From the IMG/VR virus record IMGVR_UViG_2526164667_000034: DNA of 46,987 bases, one strand, 5' to 3'. Made by a program: the position numbers and the translations under genes. Positions 1,403 to 38,990 of the stretch are shown in pieces (positions within the stretch are counted from its first letter, which is position 1; each line of letters starts with the position of its first letter). The notes below the pieces were generated by a model. The model saw only the letters and a list, made by a program, of their open reading frames with translations. It searched no databases and was not told the origin of the DNA. This DNA comes from a virus. Taxonomy: Duplodnaviria > Heunggongvirae > Uroviricota > Caudoviricetes.

Positions 1403-2545
1403 TCAAGGTGCTTCTCTAACGGATTCAGTTTTAATTGAAGATACATCTGATTTTTTTTGCATTCTACGAGCGATGGCATGCCCTATGGATACTGATGGTT
1501 TTTCAATAAAGTTATAAGATATGATTGATATAATAAAAGTAGCGCAAATCATAGCTAGAAAAACACCAAATCCTTTACTATCCAATACCCCGTACGGTTT
1601 GAGATATAAAACAGCAAGACTGTATACAACCATATGATTAATGTAAAGTGAATAGGATATTTCACCAACATACGTTAGAATTTTATTTCTATATACATCC
1701 CTACACTTAGAAATAAGGACTATTGGGGCTATAATCATAAATGAATAAGCCCCCCATGCTACAATTCCAGGTCCATTCCTTAACCCTAGGCATAAAAAAA
1801 GCAAGGCAATCGCTAATGTAATATTAAGAAATTGAACAACAGGCATTTTATTTATAAGTCTAGAAGGTAGCCTAATGTAGGCCTCTGCAATAATCATCCC
1901 CAAAATAAAGTCATATATTATTGGATTTGATACAAATACCAGATTACGAATAATTCCATCACCAGATGGCGGTTGCGCGATAGGATTTAGAAAAACATCT
2001 CCGTGAAAGTACAGTTGACCAAGAACGCAAATAATGATGAGAAGAAATGATGCGATCGCAGTTCTATATTTATGGCTGATGCATAATGAAAAAAAGAAAA
2101 CCACATAGAACCAAATTTCATACGTTAGTGTCCATGCAGGTATTATTATACTATAACCTGACCATGGCCCTATAAAATTATAGTCAATTGGTATGAGCAA
2201 GTAGCTCTTTATTATTTGTGATGATGTATATATTGCCTCATAGTTGAGGTATATAGCCAGAGTAAGGATTATAAAGTAAACAGGGTACAACCTAAAAAAA
2301 CGCTTAGCAGCAAACACCATTGGCCGGTTTTTTGCCTTATTCATTGAAGAATAAGTAATGATAAATCCACTTATAACAAAGAATATATCAACACCAACCT
2401 CACCTATACCAAAAAGAATGTCGCCCAAGTCCTTTTGGGCATACACTCCATTTAAATATACTCTAAAGTGAAACGCAATGACTAGAAGTACCGCGATCCC
2501 TCTAAGGACTTGAATAGAGTCTAACTTATTTGTTTTTCTTTCCAT
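1403..2545 (-). CDS. Acyltransferase family 3 membrane protein, putative O-antigen O-acetyltransferase (lysogenic conversion)
   Basis: 380-aa ORF, multi-TM, with N-terminal motif LRGIAVLLVIAFHF typical of OafA/Oac acyltransferases. Very AT-rich (roughly 32% GC). Sits between int and tailspike, where P22-like and Shigella phages carry serotype-converting genes. Confidence 0.75.
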   Translation of the reverse strand: MERKTNKLDSIQVLRGIAVLLVIAFHFRVYLNGVYAQKDLGDILFGIGEVGVDIFFVISGFIITYSSMNKAKNRPMVFAAKRFFRLYPVYFIILTLAIYLNYEAIYTSSQIIKSYLLIPIDYNFIGPWSGYSIIIPAWTLTYEIWFYVVFFFSLCISHKYRTAIASFLLIIICVLGQLYFHGDVFLNPIAQPPSGDGIIRNLVFVSNPIIYDFILGMIIAEAYIRLPSRLINKMPVVQFLNITLAIALLFLCLGLRNGPGIVAWGAYSFMIIAPIVLISKCRDVYRNKILTYVGEISYSLYINHMVVYSLAVLYLKPYGVLDSKGFGVFLAMICATFIISIISYNFIEKPSVSIGHAIARRMQKKSDVSSIKTESVREAP

Positions 2546-2615: not shown

Positions 2616-4489
2616 TTAAAAGTTTCCCTCTGATAAGAAAGAATAGGTTCCTGGCCCACCTGGAATATTGCATGTCCATGCCTTTGGTTGTCCTGAAGCA
2701 GGTGCGCTATTGATAACACGCTCACCTATATCCCAGAAACCGGATGTAGGTACTGACGAAAGATAAAATGTTGTTTTTTCAACTTGCAACGCGTTTGATG
2801 GCATTCCATATGCACATAGAGAAGGTGAGTTTATGAGTACATTTCCTGAACCATAATTTCTTATACCAACATTTATAGCTGTATCAGTTTCGTATATATA
2901 CACACCACAACTAACATAGCTCCATTTCCCATTACCAGCTAAAGGTGCTGTAGAGTCTGTTTGTCCTGCACCATTAATTATAAACATAAGTTTTGACGCT
3001 GATCCCTGGTCATTGACCCACGCACCAAACCATACAAATTTCCCTTTTAGTTCTGGTGATTTGTTGAGGTCTATCGTTCGTCCCCAAACTCTATCTCCTG
3101 TCGTAACTAAGAATGAATAATTACCAGCATAGATGTTTTGAGTTTTTATCAATGTTCCTGTAGTTCCAGATGCCGCAGTCCAGAGCAACATATTTCGATC
3201 AAGATAGTTAGCAGTTAACTCTCTGTTCGCAATATCTATTAAATGCGCAGTGTCAGGGTTTTGTGTCGCCGGGTCATAACTACCAACGTATCCGATGGAG
3301 TTCACTGTGTTGTTGGCAAGATATAGCCTGTCAGTAACTTTGGACGAAAGATTATTGTGGTACATTGCTAATAAATTATTCACTTTCGATGCGTCTAATA
3401 ACTGATTATTTTCAATCGTCAGGTTTTTCGCATAGTTCGTGAAAATAAATCCGTCTTGGTTAGGTAGCGCGCTGGCGTAGCCAATCGCGGTCTGCTGATT
3501 CCCGCGAATAGATACGGTATCATTAATTTTTGAAAGGTCAGGAATTAATGTAAAATTGTTCGCGATAAGGTGGATATCCGCACGTACTGTAATAGACTCA
3601 GGTACTCTATACTGGTAACCAATCTCACCGTTGCGTTCCCAATAGTTATCATCAAGGTTAAGGCCTTTAACCCCGTAAGCCAAAAGTCCGTAGAACTTAT
3701 TTTGCTCTATATTGTTGCCATTAACTCTGACGCTCATACCGCCCTCAGCGTAAGCTGGCGTAAGTAAAACTCCACCGGCTCCGTTACCATAGATACGGCT
3801 GTTGATTATATTAATATTATTGCAGTAACCACCAACATTAATACCGTTACCGGCGTTTTGAAACAACCGGCACCCAATGATGTCAATGGAGTAACCGTTA
3901 ACTAATATTGCGTTGTTATTAGTATTAACCACGTCAATATTTTCTATTTTAATGTGGTTGGCTTCAGTAAGACTGATGCCGTTAGCTGCGTAGCCATTTC
4001 CGTCAAGACCAAAGTCCCTGAACTCGCAGAACGTAATTACCCCATCTTGTTGCGTGATTATCGGTGCCGCTGTACCCGTAGAGAAAATTCTGGACTGATA
4101 TGCGCCAGCACCTCGTATCATGGTGACAGTATTCTTAATCGTAATACCAGGGTCAACAATGAACGCCCCCTCTGGTATAACAATCTCAGTTGGCAACGTA
4201 GCATCATCAATAGCCTTCTGAAATGCAGCTTTGTTCTGAGCACCGGTGTTTCCCTCAGCAAACCCGTAGTCTGTAAGCGTCCTCAGGTCGATAGTTAGCT
4301 TTTTTGAGAGAATGGTCGATGTGCTATCGACAAACTGTGGGTTATGCATGACTAGAGAGTCGCCAAGTGAGTGATCTTCGCTCAGGAGATTGCCCTTAAA
4401 CTGATCTGGATCATACTTTAGCACATTCGGAAAATAGAACTGCTGCGCACCGTATGCATCATAAACAGCCATAGAATGGCCTTGCACAG
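2616..4489 (-). pseudogene. Tailspike, C-terminal receptor-binding part (gene interrupted by IS2)
   Basis: Track ORF 2616..4517; its first 9-10 codons (MSGDSGGQS) are translated IS2 terminal sequence. The genuine part starts at [11 protein letters not shown], which continues the P22 gp9 head-binding domain. The long Asn/Gly-rich body fits a beta-helix tailspike and is not P22-like. Confidence 0.85.
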
Positions 4490-4580
4490 TAGACTGGCCC
4501 CCTGAATCTCCAGACAACCAGTATCACTTATTTAAGTGATAGTCTTAATACTAGTTTTTAGACTAGTCATTGGAGAGCAG

Positions 4581-4946
4581 ATGATTGATGTCTTAGGACC
4601 GGAGAAACGCAGACGGCGTACCACACAGGAAAAGATCGCAATTGTTCAGCAGAGCTTTGAACCAGGGATGACGGTCTCCCTCGTTGCCCGGCAACATGGT
4701 GTAGCAGCCAGCCAGTTATTTCTCTGGCGTAAGCAATACCAGGAAGGAAGTCTTACTGCTGTCGCCGCCGGAGAACAGGTTGTTCCTGCCTCTGAACTTG
4801 CTGCCGCCATGAAGCAGATTAAAGAACTCCAGCGCCTGCTCGGCAAGAAAACGATGGAAAATGAACTCCTCAAAGAAGCCGTTGAATATGGACGGGCAAA
4901 AAAGTGGATAGCGCACGCGCCCTTATTGCCCGGGGATGGGGAGTAA
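4581..4946 (+). CDS. insC: IS2 transposase OrfA (InsC)
   Basis: Track ORF 4536..4946; true start taken at [18 protein letters not shown]... (121 aa), recognised as IS2 InsC. Confidence 0.85.
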
Positions 4947-5809
4947 GCTTAGTCAGCCGTTGTCTCCGGGTGTCGCGTGCGCAGTTGCACGTCATTCTCA
5001 GACGAACCGATGACTGGATGGATGGCCGCCGCAGTCGTCACACTGATGATACGGATGTGCTTCTCCGTATACACCATGTTATCGGAGAGCTGCCCACGTA
5101 TGGTTATCGTCGGGTATGGGCGCTGCTTCGCAGACAGGCAGAACTTGATGGTATGCCTGCGATCAATGCCAAACGTGTTTACCGGATCATGCGCCAGAAT
5201 GCGCTGTTGCTTGAGCGAAAACCTGCTGTACCGCCATCGAAACGGGCACATACAGGCAGAGTGGCTGTGAAAGAAAGTAATCAGCGATGGTGCTCTGACG
5301 GGTTCGAGTTCCGCTGTGATAACGGAGAAAAACTGCGAGTCACGTTCGCGCTGGACTGCTGTGACCGTGAGGCACTGCACTGGGCGGTCACTACGGGCGG
5401 CTTCAACAGTGAAACAGTACAGGACGTCATGCTGGGAGCGGTGGAACGCCGCTTCGGCAACGAGCTTCCGGCGTCTCCAGTAGAGTGGCTGACGGATAAT
5501 GGTTCATGCTACCGGGCTAATGAAACACGGCAGTTTGCCCGGATGTTGGGGCTTGAACCGAAGAGCACGGCGGTGCGGAGTCCGGAGAGTAACGGCATAG
5601 CAGAGAGCTTCGTGAAAACGATAAAGCGTGACTACATCAGTGTCATGCCCAAACCAGACGGGTTAACGGCAGCAAAGAACCTTGCAGAGGCGTTCGAGCA
5701 TTATAACGAATGGCATCCGCATAGTGCACTGGGTTATCGCTCGCCACGGGAATATCTACGGCAGCAAGCCAGTAATGGGTTAAGTGATAACAGGTGTCTG
5801 GAAATATAG
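4904..5809 (+). CDS. insD: IS2 transposase OrfB (InsD), DDE catalytic domain
   Basis: 301-aa ORF overlapping orfA in the -1 frame (frameshift fusion architecture of the IS3 family); recognised as IS2 InsD. Confidence 0.85.
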
Positions 5810-5820
5810 GGGCAAATCCA

Positions 5821-6078
5821 CACAGTTACGAACTTGGCAATCTGTCCGTTATATACAGGGTAACCAGCAGCGTTAATGATGATTGGTTGCGAAACAGGAA
5901 CGTGAGAACCATCTTCGTTCTCTACATAAACCTGAATCTGGTTTTCAGGATTTACCGGGTCAGTGTCAATTTTACCGATATAAATTTTGCCATTGGCTAC
6001 AGCTTTAAAAGAACGCGCCATAGTGAAGAGTTGCGAAGGCATCGATACGATCACATTGGCATTTATTGAATCTGTCAT
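5821..6078 (-). pseudogene. Tailspike, N-terminal head-binding domain fragment (P22 gp9-like)
   Basis: [62 protein letters not shown]...KFVTV matches the P22 tailspike N-terminus as recalled. Fragment lengths minus the duplication give an in-frame 708-codon ancestral gene. Confidence 0.85.
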
Positions 6079-6200: not shown

Positions 6201-7136
6201 TTAAAGTTTTATTGAGTGGCACGCTCTATCACGTATCGCTGCGAATGAAGCTATCTCTTTAAGTGCCCAGCTTTGCTCAGCCATTAAATGGCGAAGTGCT
6301 TTTAGTTCAGCTCTTACTGCTGAAACGTCATACCCCGCTTTTGTCAGAATATTGATTAGTTTATACGCCGGACTGCATTCAACGAGTGCGCTGCGGTCAA
6401 GAGCAACAGTATCACCGCATTGCTGCCTGATAATGGCGTAAGGTGCATTTTCAGCAAACCATGAAATCGGGAAGTTAATATCCAGTTTTGGCGCTGGTAA
6501 CTCTTCTTGTTTGCCAATGAACTCACCTTCAAGTGGAACTCGAGCTGCAAGTGACAGTGCTTCGGTGAACTGCTCCTCACTGATTTCTTTGTACGAACAT
6601 CCAAAATGGGATTTCAGTGAGGACCACATGGTGATCATCGCCTTAGCCTGTTTTTCTTTTGGCAGAGACTGACCACGACTCATGACGAGTTGTTTAATGG
6701 CTTCCTGCTGTTCAGTGGTGATTTTACCCGGCAACGCCTTTTTAGCTTTGCGTGGGTTAAATACATGACCTTTAGTCCAGTAGTCATGCAGCACGCTAAA
6801 GCATTCTTCCTGGTACTGAATCAGTTTATCACGGATGTCAGCACGAACTTTCTCAGGGTTGATGCTGAACAGCCATCCATTTAACTTCTTCAGCGGGATG
6901 CATAAAAGCTTACGTAACTTGCCATCAGCAGCAACCATAGAGATATCTCTACAGTTGAATTTGTCCTTCATTTTACGCAACTTAACAGATTGACCAGTCC
7001 AGTCGATACCAATGTTTTCCACAATTTGACGCATCGCTACATAAGTCACTCCGGCAGCCACAGCGGTTAAAATCTGCTGACCATTGAAAGGCACGTAAGA
7101 GGTGTTCACTGCTTCTAAAATTGCTATACTATTCAT
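6201..7136 (-). CDS. ant: Antirepressor Ant (P22 immI-type)
   Basis: Start trimmed to [21 protein letters not shown]... with GGAG RBS; track ORF extends to 7202. Recognised as P22-type antirepressor; adjacent to arc and mnt. Confidence 0.85.
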
Positions 7137-7204
7137 GTTGGTTTTTCTCCACGAATTTACCGACAACCGAAGCCCTGACTGTTCCAGCAGTTGGGGCTTC
7201 AACT

Positions 7205-7366
7205 TTACGCGCCAATGCGCCCTTCCTTCTTAAAGCTGTCCATTACTCTCTGATAAATCTCAGAGTTAACAGACCGACCATTCTCTTCCGCCACCTTGCG
7301 TACCAAATCCAATACTTCTTTAGGCCACCGCAAATTGAACTGCGGCATTTTTCTTGCGCCTTGCAT
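7205..7366 (-). CDS. arc: Arc repressor (ribbon-helix-helix)
   Basis: ...[48 protein letters not shown] is near-identical to P22 Arc as recalled. Start chosen at [10 protein letters not shown] (track ORF begins upstream at 7396). Confidence 0.9.
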
Positions 7367-7396
7367 ATTCCACTCCATTCCATTAAATGATAGCAC

Positions 7397-7459
7397 CGTA
7401 CTACTATTGAAAGCGTACTACTACCGTTCTAGCATGTCAACAAATAACAGGAGAGCGAC
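7397..7459. promoter_or_regulatory. Divergent Pant/Pmnt promoter-operator region of immI
   Basis: Intergenic between divergent arc and mnt. Contains ATGATAGCACCGTACTACTAT, resembling the P22 arc operator, and a direct repeat CGTACTACTA x2. Confidence 0.5.
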
Positions 7460-7699
7460 GTGGCTAGAAACGATCCACAATTTAACGTAAGAATGCCAAG
7501 TGAAATCAAGCAGCAGCTTACTCACATTGCGGCAACAAACAGGCGCTCTATCAATGCTGAAATCATAGCTGCAATACAGCTATGGATTAAGATTAACAGA
7601 GAAAAGGTCATACCATCGACATCTCAAGATCTCACAAAAACAGAGAAGGAAGCAATGGATATTGCAATTAGCGTACTTAAGAAGATTCGAGGCCAATAA
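7460..7699 (+). CDS. mnt: Mnt repressor (ribbon-helix-helix)
   Basis: MARNDPQFNVRMPSEIKQQL...RRSINAEIIAAIQ: Arc/Mnt RHH N-terminus, divergent from arc as in P22 immI. Confidence 0.8.
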   Translation: MARNDPQFNVRMPSEIKQQLTHIAATNRRSINAEIIAAIQLWIKINREKVIPSTSQDLTKTEKEAMDIAISVLKKIRGQ

Positions 7700-8046
7700 T
7701 GAGCAGTAAGGAGCAATACTTAAAAGTTACTTTTGAGTCTTTTAGTAATTACTTGACTTCATTCAAAAAAACTTATGTATGCCCAATATGCAGCAATACA
7801 AACTGGACTCTTTTAGCACCGGAGCATCTTAAAAAAGATGATGGTGTTGAAGTTATAGGCCCATCCATACCAGGTAAAAGCTTGCCTAATAATCCTGTTA
7901 ATCAAGATACTTATAGCAACGATAGTCTTAACATGGTAGCCATGCAATGCACCACTTGCGGTTTCTTCCACTTTTTTAGTTTAAACAAAGTTAGTGAAAA
8001 TATCTCTTCTGGAAAATTCGTAAAGGGTGATGGAGATAATGTTTGA
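7699..8046 (+). CDS. Hypothetical protein, Cys-pair (zinc-ribbon-like), low-GC accessory gene
   Basis: 115-aa ORF whose ATG overlaps the mnt stop (TAATG). Motifs CPIC and CTTCG. No family recognised. Confidence 0.6.
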   Translation: MSSKEQYLKVTFESFSNYLTSFKKTYVCPICSNTNWTLLAPEHLKKDDGVEVIGPSIPGKSLPNNPVNQDTYSNDSLNMVAMQCTTCGFFHFFSLNKVSENISSGKFVKGDGDNV

Positions 8047-8539
8047 CCAACATGTTCACAATAAATCACCTAGTATTTATGGAGATGCTCAAAGCCAACA
8101 TGAAAACCTTGACTTTGACAAATCGTTATGGAGTTCAATAGAGAACGCTAAATATTCAGAGTATTACAGACCAACTGGCAGAAATCCGTCAAAGGAACCA
8201 CAAATATTTAGCCTACAAGAAGAGCAACACAAAGAAGAAGGTCGTGATACCGTGAAACGTTTAGAGCTATACGGGGTTGCAGTTGCTATCATTGGTTCTA
8301 TCGTTGCCGCCACATGGACGATTCGAGGCACTATAGATGATAAAGTTGAATCATCACGACAAGAGCTAACAGGAAACATCCAAACCAGTAAGGCAGAGAT
8401 AATGGCTACTATCCAAAACAACCAATCAGTATTACAGTCAAGGATTGATAACACTGATCAAAAATTAGACTCAACAAACCAATCTCTTTATAAGGTATTG
8501 GCTATATTAGAGTCTCAAAAAGACAAACGTTCTCAATAG
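8039..8539 (+). CDS. Hypothetical single-pass membrane protein with C-terminal coiled-coil-like region
   Basis: Track ORF 8027..8539; start chosen at MFDQHVH with GGAG RBS, overlapping the upstream stop. TM helix LYGVAVAIIGSIVAATWTI; Q/S/T-rich heptad-like C-terminus. AT-rich. Confidence 0.55.
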   Translation: MFDQHVHNKSPSIYGDAQSQHENLDFDKSLWSSIENAKYSEYYRPTGRNPSKEPQIFSLQEEQHKEEGRDTVKRLELYGVAVAIIGSIVAATWTIRGTIDDKVESSRQELTGNIQTSKAEIMATIQNNQSVLQSRIDNTDQKLDSTNQSLYKVLAILESQKDKRSQ

Positions 8540-8560
8540 TTTCTTGATTTATTACCTATA

Positions 8561-8595
8561 GCTGCATGATTGATGTCTGTTGAAAATCATGCAGC
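8561..8595. repeat. Perfect 11-bp inverted repeat (hairpin) between accessory genes 2 and 3
   Basis: GCTGCATGATT...AATCATGCAGC with a 13-nt spacer, 25 bp upstream of the next start codon. Confidence 0.6.
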
Positions 8596-8619
8596 ATTGA
8601 TAAATCTAAGGAGATCGGC

Positions 8620-8940
8620 ATGTACATATCGCTCTCTACCATTTTTTTCATCTGCTTAGCTATTTGGCTTTTAAGAATATGGCAGGATTGCTCTGTCAGC
8701 CATGCTGCTGCGGTGAGAAATAAAAACGCCCTCATAAAAGAAGCTGAAAACGTTGTCTTATCAATGGATCACCTTTCATGGACCGAGATGACTACAGGGC
8801 AACAAGAGGTTTATGAGTGTGCGATTGAGCGGTTAAGGCTGCTTAAATCGTACAAAAAGAACCACGCTCCCGACTCATTCCCATTCCTGAAAGAATGGCC
8901 GAGATGGTATGACCCGAAAAAAGCAACCATCAACCGCTAA
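8620..8940 (+). CDS. Hypothetical small membrane protein
   Basis: 106-aa ORF with AGGAG RBS and N-terminal hydrophobic helix (ISLSTIFFICLAIWLLRIW). Convergent with gp16-like gene. Confidence 0.5.
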   Translation: MYISLSTIFFICLAIWLLRIWQDCSVSHAAAVRNKNALIKEAENVVLSMDHLSWTEMTTGQQEVYECAIERLRLLKSYKKNHAPDSFPFLKEWPRWYDPKKATINR

Positions 8941-8948
8941 CCAACTTT

Positions 8949-36295: not shown

Positions 36296-36358
36296 ATAAC
36301 TCAAGTTATAAAAAATAGCAATAACCTTTGTTATTTTACTTTGGATAACCGTAGTTAT
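36296..36358. promoter_or_regulatory. Right operator OR (three ATAAC-N4-GTTAT palindromes) with divergent pR/pRM
   Basis: ATAACTCAAGTTAT (36296-36309), ATAACCTTTGTTAT (36321-36334), ATAACCGTAGTTAT (36345-36358), spaced about 24 bp, between cro and cI. Confidence 0.75.
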
Positions 36359-36370
36359 AGATTTGTGGGT

Positions 36371-37078
36371 ATGAAAACATTCGCAGAAAGACTAAATGCA
36401 GCCATGAGCTCAGCAGGGGTATCACAATCACAGCTTGCTGACATGGTTGGAATATCTCAGCCAGCCATACAGAAGATGTCGTCCGGTAAAACAAACGGAT
36501 CTCGCAAGATGGTTGAATTAGCCAATGCTTTAAAAGTGCGCCCTGAATGGCTTAGTTCTGGTATTGGTGAAATGAGGGATGGTGCACATGAAGAACCATC
36601 CAATGTCCGTGAGTCATCTTTAAAAGCTGTGGTATGGGAAGACATTAAAAGAAACGATGACGAGTTTGTTGCGTTGCCTCTTCTTAACGTTTCGCTTTCA
36701 GCTGGAAGCGGTAGCTGCGAGCTAGAGGAATCATCGGAGTTCTCTTTGGTTTTCAGAAAGCACTATCTGAAAAAGATGGGAGTATCTGAAAGATCAGCCA
36801 AGCTAGTTAGGGTTGTAGGGCAAAGCATGGAACCAACGCTTCACGATGGCGATGTTGTTGGTGTTAACACGCAAGATACCACCATCAGAGATGGTAAAAC
36901 CTACGCTATTTGCCAGTCTGATTTGTTACGAGTAAAAACATTAATCGCCACCCCTACATCGGTGATAATCAGATCAATAAATCGCGAAGAGTACCCGGAT
37001 GAAGTAATGGATAGAGATGAATTTCATGAAACCGTAAGGATTATTGGCAGAGTATTCTGGTCGTCTCATAGTTGGTAA
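36371..37078 (+). CDS. cI: CI-type prophage repressor (HTH plus LexA-like S24 peptidase domain)
   Basis: Track ORF 36341..37078; start chosen at MKTFAERLN. HTH QSQLADMVGISQPAIQKM and C-terminal autoproteolytic domain GQSMEPTLHDGDVVGV. Confidence 0.9.
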   Translation: MKTFAERLNAAMSSAGVSQSQLADMVGISQPAIQKMSSGKTNGSRKMVELANALKVRPEWLSSGIGEMRDGAHEEPSNVRESSLKAVVWEDIKRNDDEFVALPLLNVSLSAGSGSCELEESSEFSLVFRKHYLKKMGVSERSAKLVRVVGQSMEPTLHDGDVVGVNTQDTTIRDGKTYAICQSDLLRVKTLIATPTSVIIRSINREEYPDEVMDRDEFHETVRIIGRVFWSSHSW

Positions 37079-37118: not shown

Positions 37119-37415
37119 ATGGAATTTCTGATAGTTTTTGTTGTTGTTTTGGTCATCATTCTTTTTGTTTTGCTAAGCATTAGTAAAAAGCTATCTCAAG
37201 TGATTGAACATAGCTCTAATCGCGCAAAAGAAGAAGAGCATCTAATTGATATAAAAGAGATTCTCTCTGATATAAAAATCACATTAGATGAAATAAAATA
37301 CACAACAGATCTAATTGAACAGTATAAAATACCAACCCCAAACGAGAGAAAAGCAATAGATCAATATCGTATTGACTTAGAAATCGACGAAATGCTAAGC
37401 AAAAGAAAAGACTAA
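37119..37415 (+). CDS. Hypothetical small membrane protein co-transcribed with cI (rexAB position)
   Basis: 98-aa ORF 40 bp after the cI stop with GGAGGG RBS. N-terminal TM EFLIVFVVVLVIILFVLLSI, charged helical remainder. Very AT-rich. Followed by a strong terminator. Confidence 0.6.
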   Translation: MEFLIVFVVVLVIILFVLLSISKKLSQVIEHSSNRAKEEEHLIDIKEILSDIKITLDEIKYTTDLIEQYKIPTPNERKAIDQYRIDLEIDEMLSKRKD

Positions 37416-38495: not shown

Positions 38496-38990
38496 TTAAT
38501 AATTTGTCAGCGGCGGTACATATACAGGCTTAGGGTCTGGCGCTCTATACATCCGGTATTCATTCTTACAGCGAGGACATGAATGCACAAAGAACCCATT
38601 AGATTTTATAGTAACCGTGCTTGGTTGAAGTATCGATATTTTATGTTCGCCGAAGCAATGTGCACAAAGGTTATGCTGCTGAATAGAAGGATCGGAATGA
38701 CTCTTAGGTCGATACACGACAGAACCACCTTCAGTTGTATGAAGTTCATAATTCTCAGCTTGCACAACAAACATCTTGATTTTTCTATTTTCATCTCGAA
38801 GCTTCATTGCGATCTCCTTCTCGGCCTGATAAAGGCCAGAGAGCTCCGCATTAAGCATCTGTAAGTCAGTTATTCTTTGGTGTAGATCACCAATAGCTTT
38901 AGCGATAACAGCATCGTCTCTGGTTTCTTTTATTGTCTTCAGCAGATCATAAGCCTGTTTCGCGGCAGTTATACCAGATAACACATCCAT
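38496..38990 (-). CDS. Hypothetical coiled-coil plus C-terminal zinc-ribbon protein, opposite strand to the pL operon
   Basis: 164-aa ORF; N-terminal heptad-rich region and C-terminal CAHCFGEHK...CPRCKNEY. AT-rich. Upstream region carries direct repeats. Confidence 0.6.
   Translation of the reverse strand: MDVLSGITAAKQAYDLLKTIKETRDDAVIAKAIGDLHQRITDLQMLNAELSGLYQAEKEIAMKLRDENRKIKMFVVQAENYELHTTEGGSVVYRPKSHSDPSIQQHNLCAHCFGEHKISILQPSTVTIKSNGFFVHSCPRCKNEYRMYRAPDPKPVYVPPLTNY

Follow-up and report, generated by a model that had tools for sequence, protein, structure and literature searches.

A zinc-ribbon and membrane protein gene pair behind prophage repressor genes: a candidate Rex-like module in a P22-like Escherichia coli prophage

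Introduction

Which of the genes that a P22-like prophage carries behind its mnt repressor gene could serve the lysogen, and do these genes belong together? We addressed this question for a complete P22-like Escherichia coli prophage of 46,987 nucleotides (IMG/VR record IMGVR_UViG_2526164667_000034), the whole of which is referred to here as the window. Between mnt and the ejection gene 16, within the immI region, the window has three genes, named here ORF1, ORF2 and ORF3 (ORF, open reading frame). An initial annotation, made from the sequence without database searches, had read them as a single low-GC cassette, a candidate for exclusion or defence, situated in the sieA slot of P22-like phages. 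We found that ORF1 and ORF2 form a pair which recurs behind the repressor genes of diverse prophages, that ORF3 belongs with gene 16, and that the pair may be a lysogen-expressed, Rex-like two-component membrane module acting on superinfecting phages.

Prophage genes that are coexpressed with a repressor are classic determinants of which phages are able to infect a lysogen, and yet are poorly understood; rexAB, bstA and sieA are examples. SieA is a superinfection exclusion protein of P22 that resides in the inner membrane and blocks DNA injection. The interval between gene 16 and gene 9 holds sieA (PMC10883804), and the interval between cI and N is a known mosaic hotspot with rexAB and bstA (PMC8585504).

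Two evolutionary units behind mnt

The features that the initial annotation had read from the letters were all recovered: three ORFs behind mnt, two Cys pairs in ORF1, hydrophobic segments in the predicted membrane proteins ORF2 (residues 75-95) and ORF3 (residues 1-26), and a perfect 11-bp inverted repeat (Table 1). The operon-style overlaps were seen as well. The start codon of ORF1 overlaps the stop codon of mnt (TAATG), and the ATG of ORF2 overlaps the 3' end of ORF1 by 8 nucleotides (ATGTTTGA). All three proteins are conserved at 25-75% identity in other loci, which argues that these are real genes and not chance ORFs. A base composition foreign to the phage backbone, at about 35% guanine plus cytosine (GC), had also been claimed. 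The pair does deviate, with 37.0% GC against 47% in its flanks; the value of 35% fits ORF1 (35.1%) and is too low for ORF2 (38.1%), ORF3 (43.6%) and the three genes together (38.6%, against about 47% in the prophage backbone).

The gene order in the window, 16 - ORF3 - ORF2 - ORF1 - mnt - arc - ant - tailspike, places the three genes between the homologues of gene 16 and gene 9 and agrees with the layout of the P22 record BK000583 (16 - sieA - orf59a - mnt - arc - ant - 9). The Mnt proteins of the window and of P22 are 48% identical across the N-terminal residues 1-40. By this order, ORF3 is the true occupant of the sieA position, being convergent with gene 16, and the ORF1-ORF2 pair holds the position of P22 orf59a, within the mnt operon and ahead of its terminator. 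The sieA slot assigned earlier to all three genes is thus that of ORF3.

Comparison with other prophages separated ORF3 from the pair. Another 19 E. coli records have an ORF3 of 97% identity, with homology to the window starting at 8601-8602, just past the inverted repeat. For example, E. coli K71-77 (locus L040) shares 99% DNA identity with the window from 8601 through ORF3 and gene 16 and encodes the identical ORF3 protein (WP_000275950.1), but it has unrelated genes behind mnt, which marks the interval between mnt and ORF3 as a site of variable cargo. In locus L006, an ORF3 homologue stands directly after mnt and a canonical terminator, and both ORF1 and ORF2 are absent. Conversely, the pair is found without ORF3 in L023 and in all loci where it is linked to cI. 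ORF3 is collinear with gene 16, at DNA identities of 99% (L040), 77% (L005) and 66% (L006), and a more distant relative, gp49 of phage mEp043 (34-38% identical), lies 14 bp behind cI. A mosaic breakpoint at 8601 therefore separates ORF1-ORF2 from ORF3, with the inverted repeat as the right-hand mosaic boundary.

A single three-gene exclusion cassette with products acting together, as first proposed, could be read from the shared strand and from the lack of a canonical terminator between the genes and of a good ORF3 promoter, so that all three may share a transcript. It could also be read from L005, where mnt is followed first by a zinc-ribbon gene, then by a gene for a membrane protein and finally by a homologue of ORF3. 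The occurrence of ORF3 without the pair in L006 and in the 19 E. coli records of the L040 type, the occurrence of the pair without ORF3, and the breakpoint between them make such a cassette very improbable. Judged by these homology boundaries, ORF1-ORF2 and ORF3 are two separate evolutionary units, and ORF3 is a gene of its own inherited with the gene-16 block.

Several observations concern the borders of these units. Similarity of the window mnt to that of P22-like phages at the DNA level (83.6%, Salmonella phage Emek) ends at about 7594, past the ribbon-helix-helix part, which puts the left mosaic junction of the foreign segment (7595-8600) inside mnt. ORF1-ORF2 and the C-terminal third of Mnt move together, in L023 as well. 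In K71-77, the slot behind mnt (L040, 2491-3489) holds a 69-aa gene overlapping the mnt stop codon and minus-strand genes of 61 and 121 aa, all of them annotated as hypothetical. In L023 (IMG/VR UViG_2906490466_000002), the gene at 4358-4657 adjoins a different, 826-aa gene-16-like protein gene and is not homologous to ORF3; its product is a coiled-coil protein of 99 aa, anchored at the N-terminus, that matches DUF2730 weakly (E 0.018). From these cases, the small membrane gene beside gene 16 seems to change along with the type of gene 16.

The pair follows repressor genes of unrelated kinds

In every locus that we recovered, the zinc-ribbon gene shares an overlap with a second gene, which encodes a membrane-anchored helical protein. 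Overlapping homologues of ORF1 (34% identity) and ORF2 (46%) occur, among others, in L004, L013 and L017. Among 19 distinct contexts, the pair was found directly behind a prophage repressor gene on the same strand in 17, the repressors being confirmed by Pfam. The upstream gene encodes a cI-type repressor with a Peptidase_S24 domain in 13 contexts (one with an extra gene between), a repressor with only a helix-turn-helix (HTH) domain in one (Klebsiella spallanzanii) and Mnt in three (the window type, L023 and L005). In the other two contexts, the upstream genes are those of an excisionase and an integrase (L036), or no repressor was seen nearby (L041). The cI proteins upstream of the pair are mostly 19-57% identical to each other. 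Such divergence suggests that the pair is linked to an expression slot and not to any single repressor protein, and the presence of two structurally unrelated kinds of repressor suggests that it exploits this slot rather than acting on the repressor. The linkage strengthens the earlier proposal of an accessory role expressed in lysogens, which we consider plausible.

The pair also has moron-like features. A moron is an extra phage gene unit between conserved genes, with its own terminator and often its own promoter. Two features of morons were found here, a deviant base composition (4-12 GC points under the flanks in 19/19 loci) and presence or absence between conserved neighbours, as seen in K71-77 and for one pair-linked cI allele that occurs without the pair in 615 complete E. 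coli genomes. As to the terminator, a canonical intrinsic one follows the second gene in 14/14 relatives; the window has a hairpin lacking a T-run, and no promoter of its own was predicted for the pair. In addition, the window and L023 share 83% identity in Mnt, against only about 33% in the adjacent ORF1 and ORF2, a contrast that points to fast divergence or allele swapping.

Phages N7 and HZ41, both viable, carry the identical cassette, as do 41 of 5426 complete E. coli genomes and six IMG/VR contigs; it is annotated as hypothetical throughout, and its hosts include strains of E. coli that make Shiga toxin (STEC). Among 50,697 phage records searched by tblastn, ORF1 and ORF2 were found in N7 and HZ41 only, and ORF3 also in mEp043. 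Scans of species-representative genomes added one locus, that of Klebsiella spallanzanii, and a metagenome scan two more. A search of plasmids for the pair family gave no match, and the cI-linked variant was not found in the 5426 complete E. coli genomes.

A constant zinc-ribbon protein with exchangeable membrane partners

The two Cys pairs of ORF1 lie at residues 28-31 (CPIC) and 84-87 (CTTC), and all four Cys are invariant across 13 family members. An AlphaFold2 model of modest confidence (pLDDT, the predicted local distance difference test, of 68.6) consists of beta-hairpins with flanking helices, and generic zinc ribbons were the sole kind of match in fold comparison. Of 1.84 billion representative proteins searched exhaustively with phmmer, 16 matched, and two of these (P0033 and P0036) were repetitive false positives, leaving about 13 true relatives or clusters at 50% identity. 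In a word-indexed search of 5.8 billion proteins, nearly all matches to ORF1 were near-identical copies, and a few relatives of ORF2 and ORF3 appeared.

ORF2 has a single hydrophobic segment preceded by a variable N-terminal region of about 70 aa. Its AlphaFold2 model is disordered over residues 1-69 and forms one helix over residues 69-165, with pLDDT above 90 over most of it; this long helix probably forms oligomers. An alignment of 11 members revealed a conserved juxtamembrane motif, ATWTI..I.DK..SRQEL.

The membrane partner is built the other way round in five loci (L005, L024, L037, L038/L042 and L041), with the coiled coil first and a C-terminal anchor after it. We refer to these partners as type B and to ORF2 and its homologues as type A. 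Homology to ORF1 extends to the zinc-ribbon proteins of type B loci (hhalign probability 98.2%, E 4e-14). For the type A and type B partners, hhalign gave a probability of 1%, and common ancestry was rejected as far as it can be detected. The zinc-ribbon protein thus appears to be the constant part of the module and the membrane partner an exchangeable one. The type B partner, at about 100-120 aa with a coiled coil and a C-terminal anchor, resembles XhlA (PF10779) of phage lysis cassettes, and that of L005 matched XhlA with E 5.8e-5 and 23.6 bits, under the Pfam cut-off of 34.7. Unlike XhlA, ORF2 has its membrane segment first and the helix after it; it gave no XhlA match and is not detectably related to the type B partners.

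The earlier statement that the three proteins lack recognisable homology stands for Pfam, NCBIfam and PADLOC, where scans gave nothing significant. It does not stand for PHROGs, where all three fall into families of unknown function (phrog_4293, phrog_24865 and phrog_10450), nor in view of their homologues in other prophages. The remote-homology and structure predictions that had been suggested yielded a zinc-ribbon ORF1 and a helical ORF2, with fold matches of a generic kind only, and no solved structure resembles any of the three proteins. No homology to virion proteins or to SieA was found. SieA identity was rejected: in BLASTP comparisons with P22 SieA, the lowest E values were 11 for ORF1 and 4.3 for ORF2, and ORF3 had no match. 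A regular-expression search for FxRYPxEAxxFNK, the conserved cytoplasmic motif of SieA (PMC10883804), found no match in the three proteins or in the six frames of 7400-9000. Three accession numbers, looked up in the DefensePredictor supplements, were not listed there, and we found nothing on these proteins in the literature, whether by accession, by themes of zinc ribbon, membrane and anti-phage function, or under mEp043.

Expression from the repressor operon

A consensus scan predicted neither a promoter nor a canonical terminator between mnt and ORF3. With no promoter predicted for it alone, the pair appears to use that of the repressor. From the biology of P22 Pmnt and the high activity of the repressor promoter in lysogens (PMC8585504), we infer that the pair is expressed in lysogens. 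ORF3 has an AAGGAG ribosome-binding site, and no promoter was predicted ahead of it.

The inverted repeat folds as RNA better than shuffled sequence (z = -3.45) and sits where relatives have their intrinsic terminator. As it lacks a T-run, this hairpin could at most terminate transcription leakily or stabilise the 3' end. In a predicted extended stem, UUUCUU just 3' of the ORF2 stop codon pairs with the Shine-Dalgarno sequence of ORF3. It may be speculated that this stem masks the site and that ribosomes ending ORF2 could unmask ORF3; all copies of the stem are identical and offer no covariation.

A candidate Rex-like module

The layout of the pair recalls that of known exclusion genes. In lambda, RexA, of about 279 aa, and the multi-pass RexB cause abortive infection, with membrane potential being lost, and are encoded behind cI in the PRM operon. 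Like rexA and rexB, ORF1 and ORF2 are co-oriented, lie directly downstream of the prophage repressor gene and close the repressor operon, and one product is predicted to be cytoplasmic and the other membrane-bound. They differ in that ORF1 is a 115-aa zinc-ribbon protein and ORF2 has one membrane segment, and no Rex family appeared among the Pfam matches at E ≤ 1 or in PADLOC. Similarly, BstA of prophage BTP1 occupies a position behind prophage repressors of diverse kinds that is strikingly conserved, and it presumably shares their promoter (PMC8585504). In contrast to the pair, BstA is a single large cytoplasmic DNA-associated abortive-infection protein, with no homology to ORF1 or ORF2, and these gave no PADLOC match.

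Judging from gene position and predicted architecture, we give the reading of the pair as a lysogen-expressed, Rex-like module directed at superinfecting phages a probability of roughly 0.45. ORF1, ORF2 and the hairpin are, as comparison with other loci shows, a mobile two-gene module at the 3' end of the repressor operon. Being attached to it, the two genes would presumably be expressed from Pmnt at all times in lysogens, along with Mnt. During lytic growth, late antisense transcription would probably oppose them, by analogy with P22. The tight overlap of the genes suggests that the two proteins form a complex, which may work like lambda RexAB or like an abortive-infection pair of the toxin-antitoxin type. 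ORF1 would act as a cytoplasmic sensor or regulator, holding or triggering ORF2, and ORF2, on infection by another phage, would damage or block the inner membrane so that the lysogen population is protected.

Some of the same genes could instead block DNA entry in the manner of SieA. ORF2, as a periplasmic coiled coil, or ORF3, or both, would then sit in the inner membrane and, without killing the cell, get in the way of either the gp7/gp20/gp16 ejection conduit of superinfecting P22-like phages or a host factor for their entry. The position between gene 16 and gene 9, on the strand opposite to the late genes, is that of sieA, and membrane proteins are encoded in both cases. ORF3 faces gene 16 in convergent orientation, and the two diverge together, at the DNA identities of 99%, 77% and 66% given above; ORF3 is also a small protein with a single anchor, as classical exclusion proteins are. 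An N-in orientation of ORF2 would moreover place its conserved helix in the periplasm. Against this, the proteins have neither similarity to SieA (E > 4) nor its motif, and ORF2 and ORF3 have one membrane segment each. In P22, sieA is preceded by a promoter of its own, located past the mnt terminator; ORF1-ORF2, by contrast, are part of the mnt operon. Classical entry blockers are single proteins, leaving a conserved cytoplasmic zinc-ribbon partner with no obvious role. Most relatives of the pair, and gp49 in mEp043, lie behind cI, and mEp043 belongs to the genus Aguilavirus, whereas the cassette-bearing N7 is a Lederbergvirus, so that neither the pair nor gp49 is tied to P22-type ejection proteins. 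An entry block of this kind is unlikely. The lack of an enzymatic domain, the combination of a cytoplasmic and a single-pass product, the coupled genes and the exchangeable partner are better accommodated by abortive infection of the Rex or toxin-antitoxin type than by a simple entry blocker.

ORF3 taken alone looks more like a classical single-protein exclusion factor than the pair does. Small single-protein membrane exclusion factors encoded beside repressor genes include lactococcal Sie2009 and HK97 gp15; ORF3 and mEp043 gp49 are alike in having about 100 aa, one N-terminal anchor and a place beside repressor or ejection genes. As a small membrane protein gene linked to gene 16, ORF3 is the positional analogue of sieA and a candidate for a classical single-protein superinfection-exclusion factor. 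Overall, both units, the pair and ORF3, are plausible candidate shields against other phages.

A prophage-stabilising addiction pair, with ORF2 as membrane toxin and ORF1 as antitoxin, would share the arrangement of a small upstream protein followed by an overlapping gene for a membrane protein, with tight coupling. Zinc ribbons do occur in antitoxins such as MqsA, to which the matches here are weak and at the fold level only. No known toxin or antitoxin family was found in Pfam or NCBIfam, ORF1 lacks a DNA-binding domain for autoregulation, and the repressor's promoter is used in place of one of the pair's own, all of which make addiction improbable. Since many toxin-antitoxin pairs act as abortive-infection systems, this reading overlaps with the Rex-like module.

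Lysogenic conversion unrelated to phages, in which the pair would alter the envelope or physiology (stress tolerance, division or colonisation) for the benefit of the lysogen, would fit the presumed lysogen-expressed slot, the moron features, the lack of a match to defence models and the STEC strains among the hosts. In its layout, a single membrane segment followed by a coiled coil, ORF2 is also reminiscent of proteins of the envelope and of cell division, for example FtsB and FtsL. We nevertheless find conversion quite unlikely, as the very fast divergence beside a conserved Mnt (83% against about 33%) and the swapping of partners fit an arms race better than a conserved host target, and both slots are best known for anti-phage genes.

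Several observations weigh against a Rex-like module. PADLOC-DB 2.0.0 (5027 models, 2023 release), a search that had been proposed for these genes, gave no family at E ≤ 1 for Mnt, ORF1, ORF2 or ORF3, and no enzymatic or known effector domain was found in ORF1 or ORF2. The ORF1 family is very rare, which does not suggest the picture of a broadly successful defence system. Location in a defence hotspot is suggestive only, given that repressor-linked genes can have other lysogenic-conversion roles. The resemblance to XhlA is sub-threshold and is that of a non-homologous type B partner and not of ORF2. The orientation of ORF2 is ambiguous, with balanced flanking charges in 12 homologues and a positive-inside rule that, applied to 16 membrane partners, favours neither direction. 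Finally, with the hairpin lacking the T-run of its relatives, the end of the transcript and the mode of ORF3 expression are uncertain.

In its most general form, the Rex-like reading would make the ORF1 family an undescribed class of two-component anti-phage systems in repressor operons (cI or Mnt), in which a conserved zinc-ribbon sensor is combined with interchangeable, unrelated membrane coiled-coil effectors (type A, and the XhlA-like type B) that, on infection, kill or seal the cell at the inner membrane, with ORF3 and mEp043 gp49 as a second, independent exclusion family. We put this forward tentatively, as a somewhat doubtful extension. In terms of novelty, the pair appears from its gene neighbourhoods to be an uncharacterised passenger of a known repressor-operon theme, with an unusually clean neighbourhood rule.

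The module is compact (about 280 codons), carries no enzymatic domain and obeys a clear rule of position behind unrelated types of repressor. If it is a defence system, it would offer a simple model of a small cytoplasmic sensor controlling a single-pass membrane effector, and of effector swapping around a conserved sensor. Since it is carried by O-antigen-specific P22-like prophages in STEC and other E. coli, it could have a bearing on phage typing and therapy and on how prophages compete in these strains. If it is not, it would still represent a conserved membrane function, presumably expressed in lysogens.

Features of the window and further observations

The coordinates of the genes and signals discussed above are collected in Table 1.

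Table 1. Genes and signals around mnt in the window.
Feature	Position	Strand	Basis
ant	6201-7202	-	Pfam P22_AR_N 4.1e-42
arc	7205-7396	-	Pfam Arc 1.1e-30
Pmnt-like sigma-70 promoter (predicted), TTGAAA-17-TAGCAT, in the arc/mnt divergent control region	7407-7435	+	Consensus scan; position as P22 Pmnt
mnt, ribbon-helix-helix repressor gene, 79 aa, GTG start	7460-7699	+	Pfam Arc 4.8e-13
ORF1, 115-aa predicted cytoplasmic zinc-ribbon protein (CPxC...CxxCG), conserved core of the two-gene module	7699-8046	+	phrog_4293 4.7e-31
ORF2, 166-aa predicted single-pass membrane protein	8039-8539	+	phrog_24865; AlphaFold2; 11-member alignment
Perfect 11-bp inverted repeat, 13-nucleotide loop	8561-8571 / 8585-8595	+	Repeat search, RNA folding
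ORF3, 106-aa protein with predicted N-terminal membrane anchor	8620-8940	+	phrog_10450 3.2e-52
Gene 16-type ejection protein, convergent with ORF3	8949-10955	-	tblastn to P22-like DNA transfer proteins; homologues with Pfam Phage_P22_gp16
Gene 20, ejection gene	10952-12367	-	

Beyond ant, an insertion sequence of the IS3 family (4536-5809; HTH_Tnp_1 in orfA and rve in orfB) interrupts the P22-type tailspike gene. The pieces of the latter lie on the minus strand at 2616-4517 and 5734-6078, with the break within the head-binding domain; the gene of E. coli E2865 is intact. Because its tailspike gene is split, this copy of the prophage probably yields no infectious virions; its immI genes are nonetheless intact. 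At the end of the prophage, a gene for an acyltransferase of the Acyl_transf_3 family (1403-2545, minus strand) adjoins the tailspike gene. Its product is probably an O-antigen acetylase, which would make it a lysogenic-conversion gene.

Two further ORFs were noted elsewhere in the window. Directly 3' of the prophage's own cI (36341-37078, with HTH and Peptidase_S24 domains), that is, in the slot of rex and bstA, lies a 98-aa ORF (37119-37415, plus strand), the product of which has an N-terminal membrane segment (residues 1-30), a charged helical tail and no Pfam match. A comparison with the third gene of L023 revealed no similarity. In the early-left region, a 164-aa ORF (38496-38990, minus strand) with no Pfam match encodes a protein with a coiled-coil-like N-terminal half and a C-terminal CAHC...CPRC.

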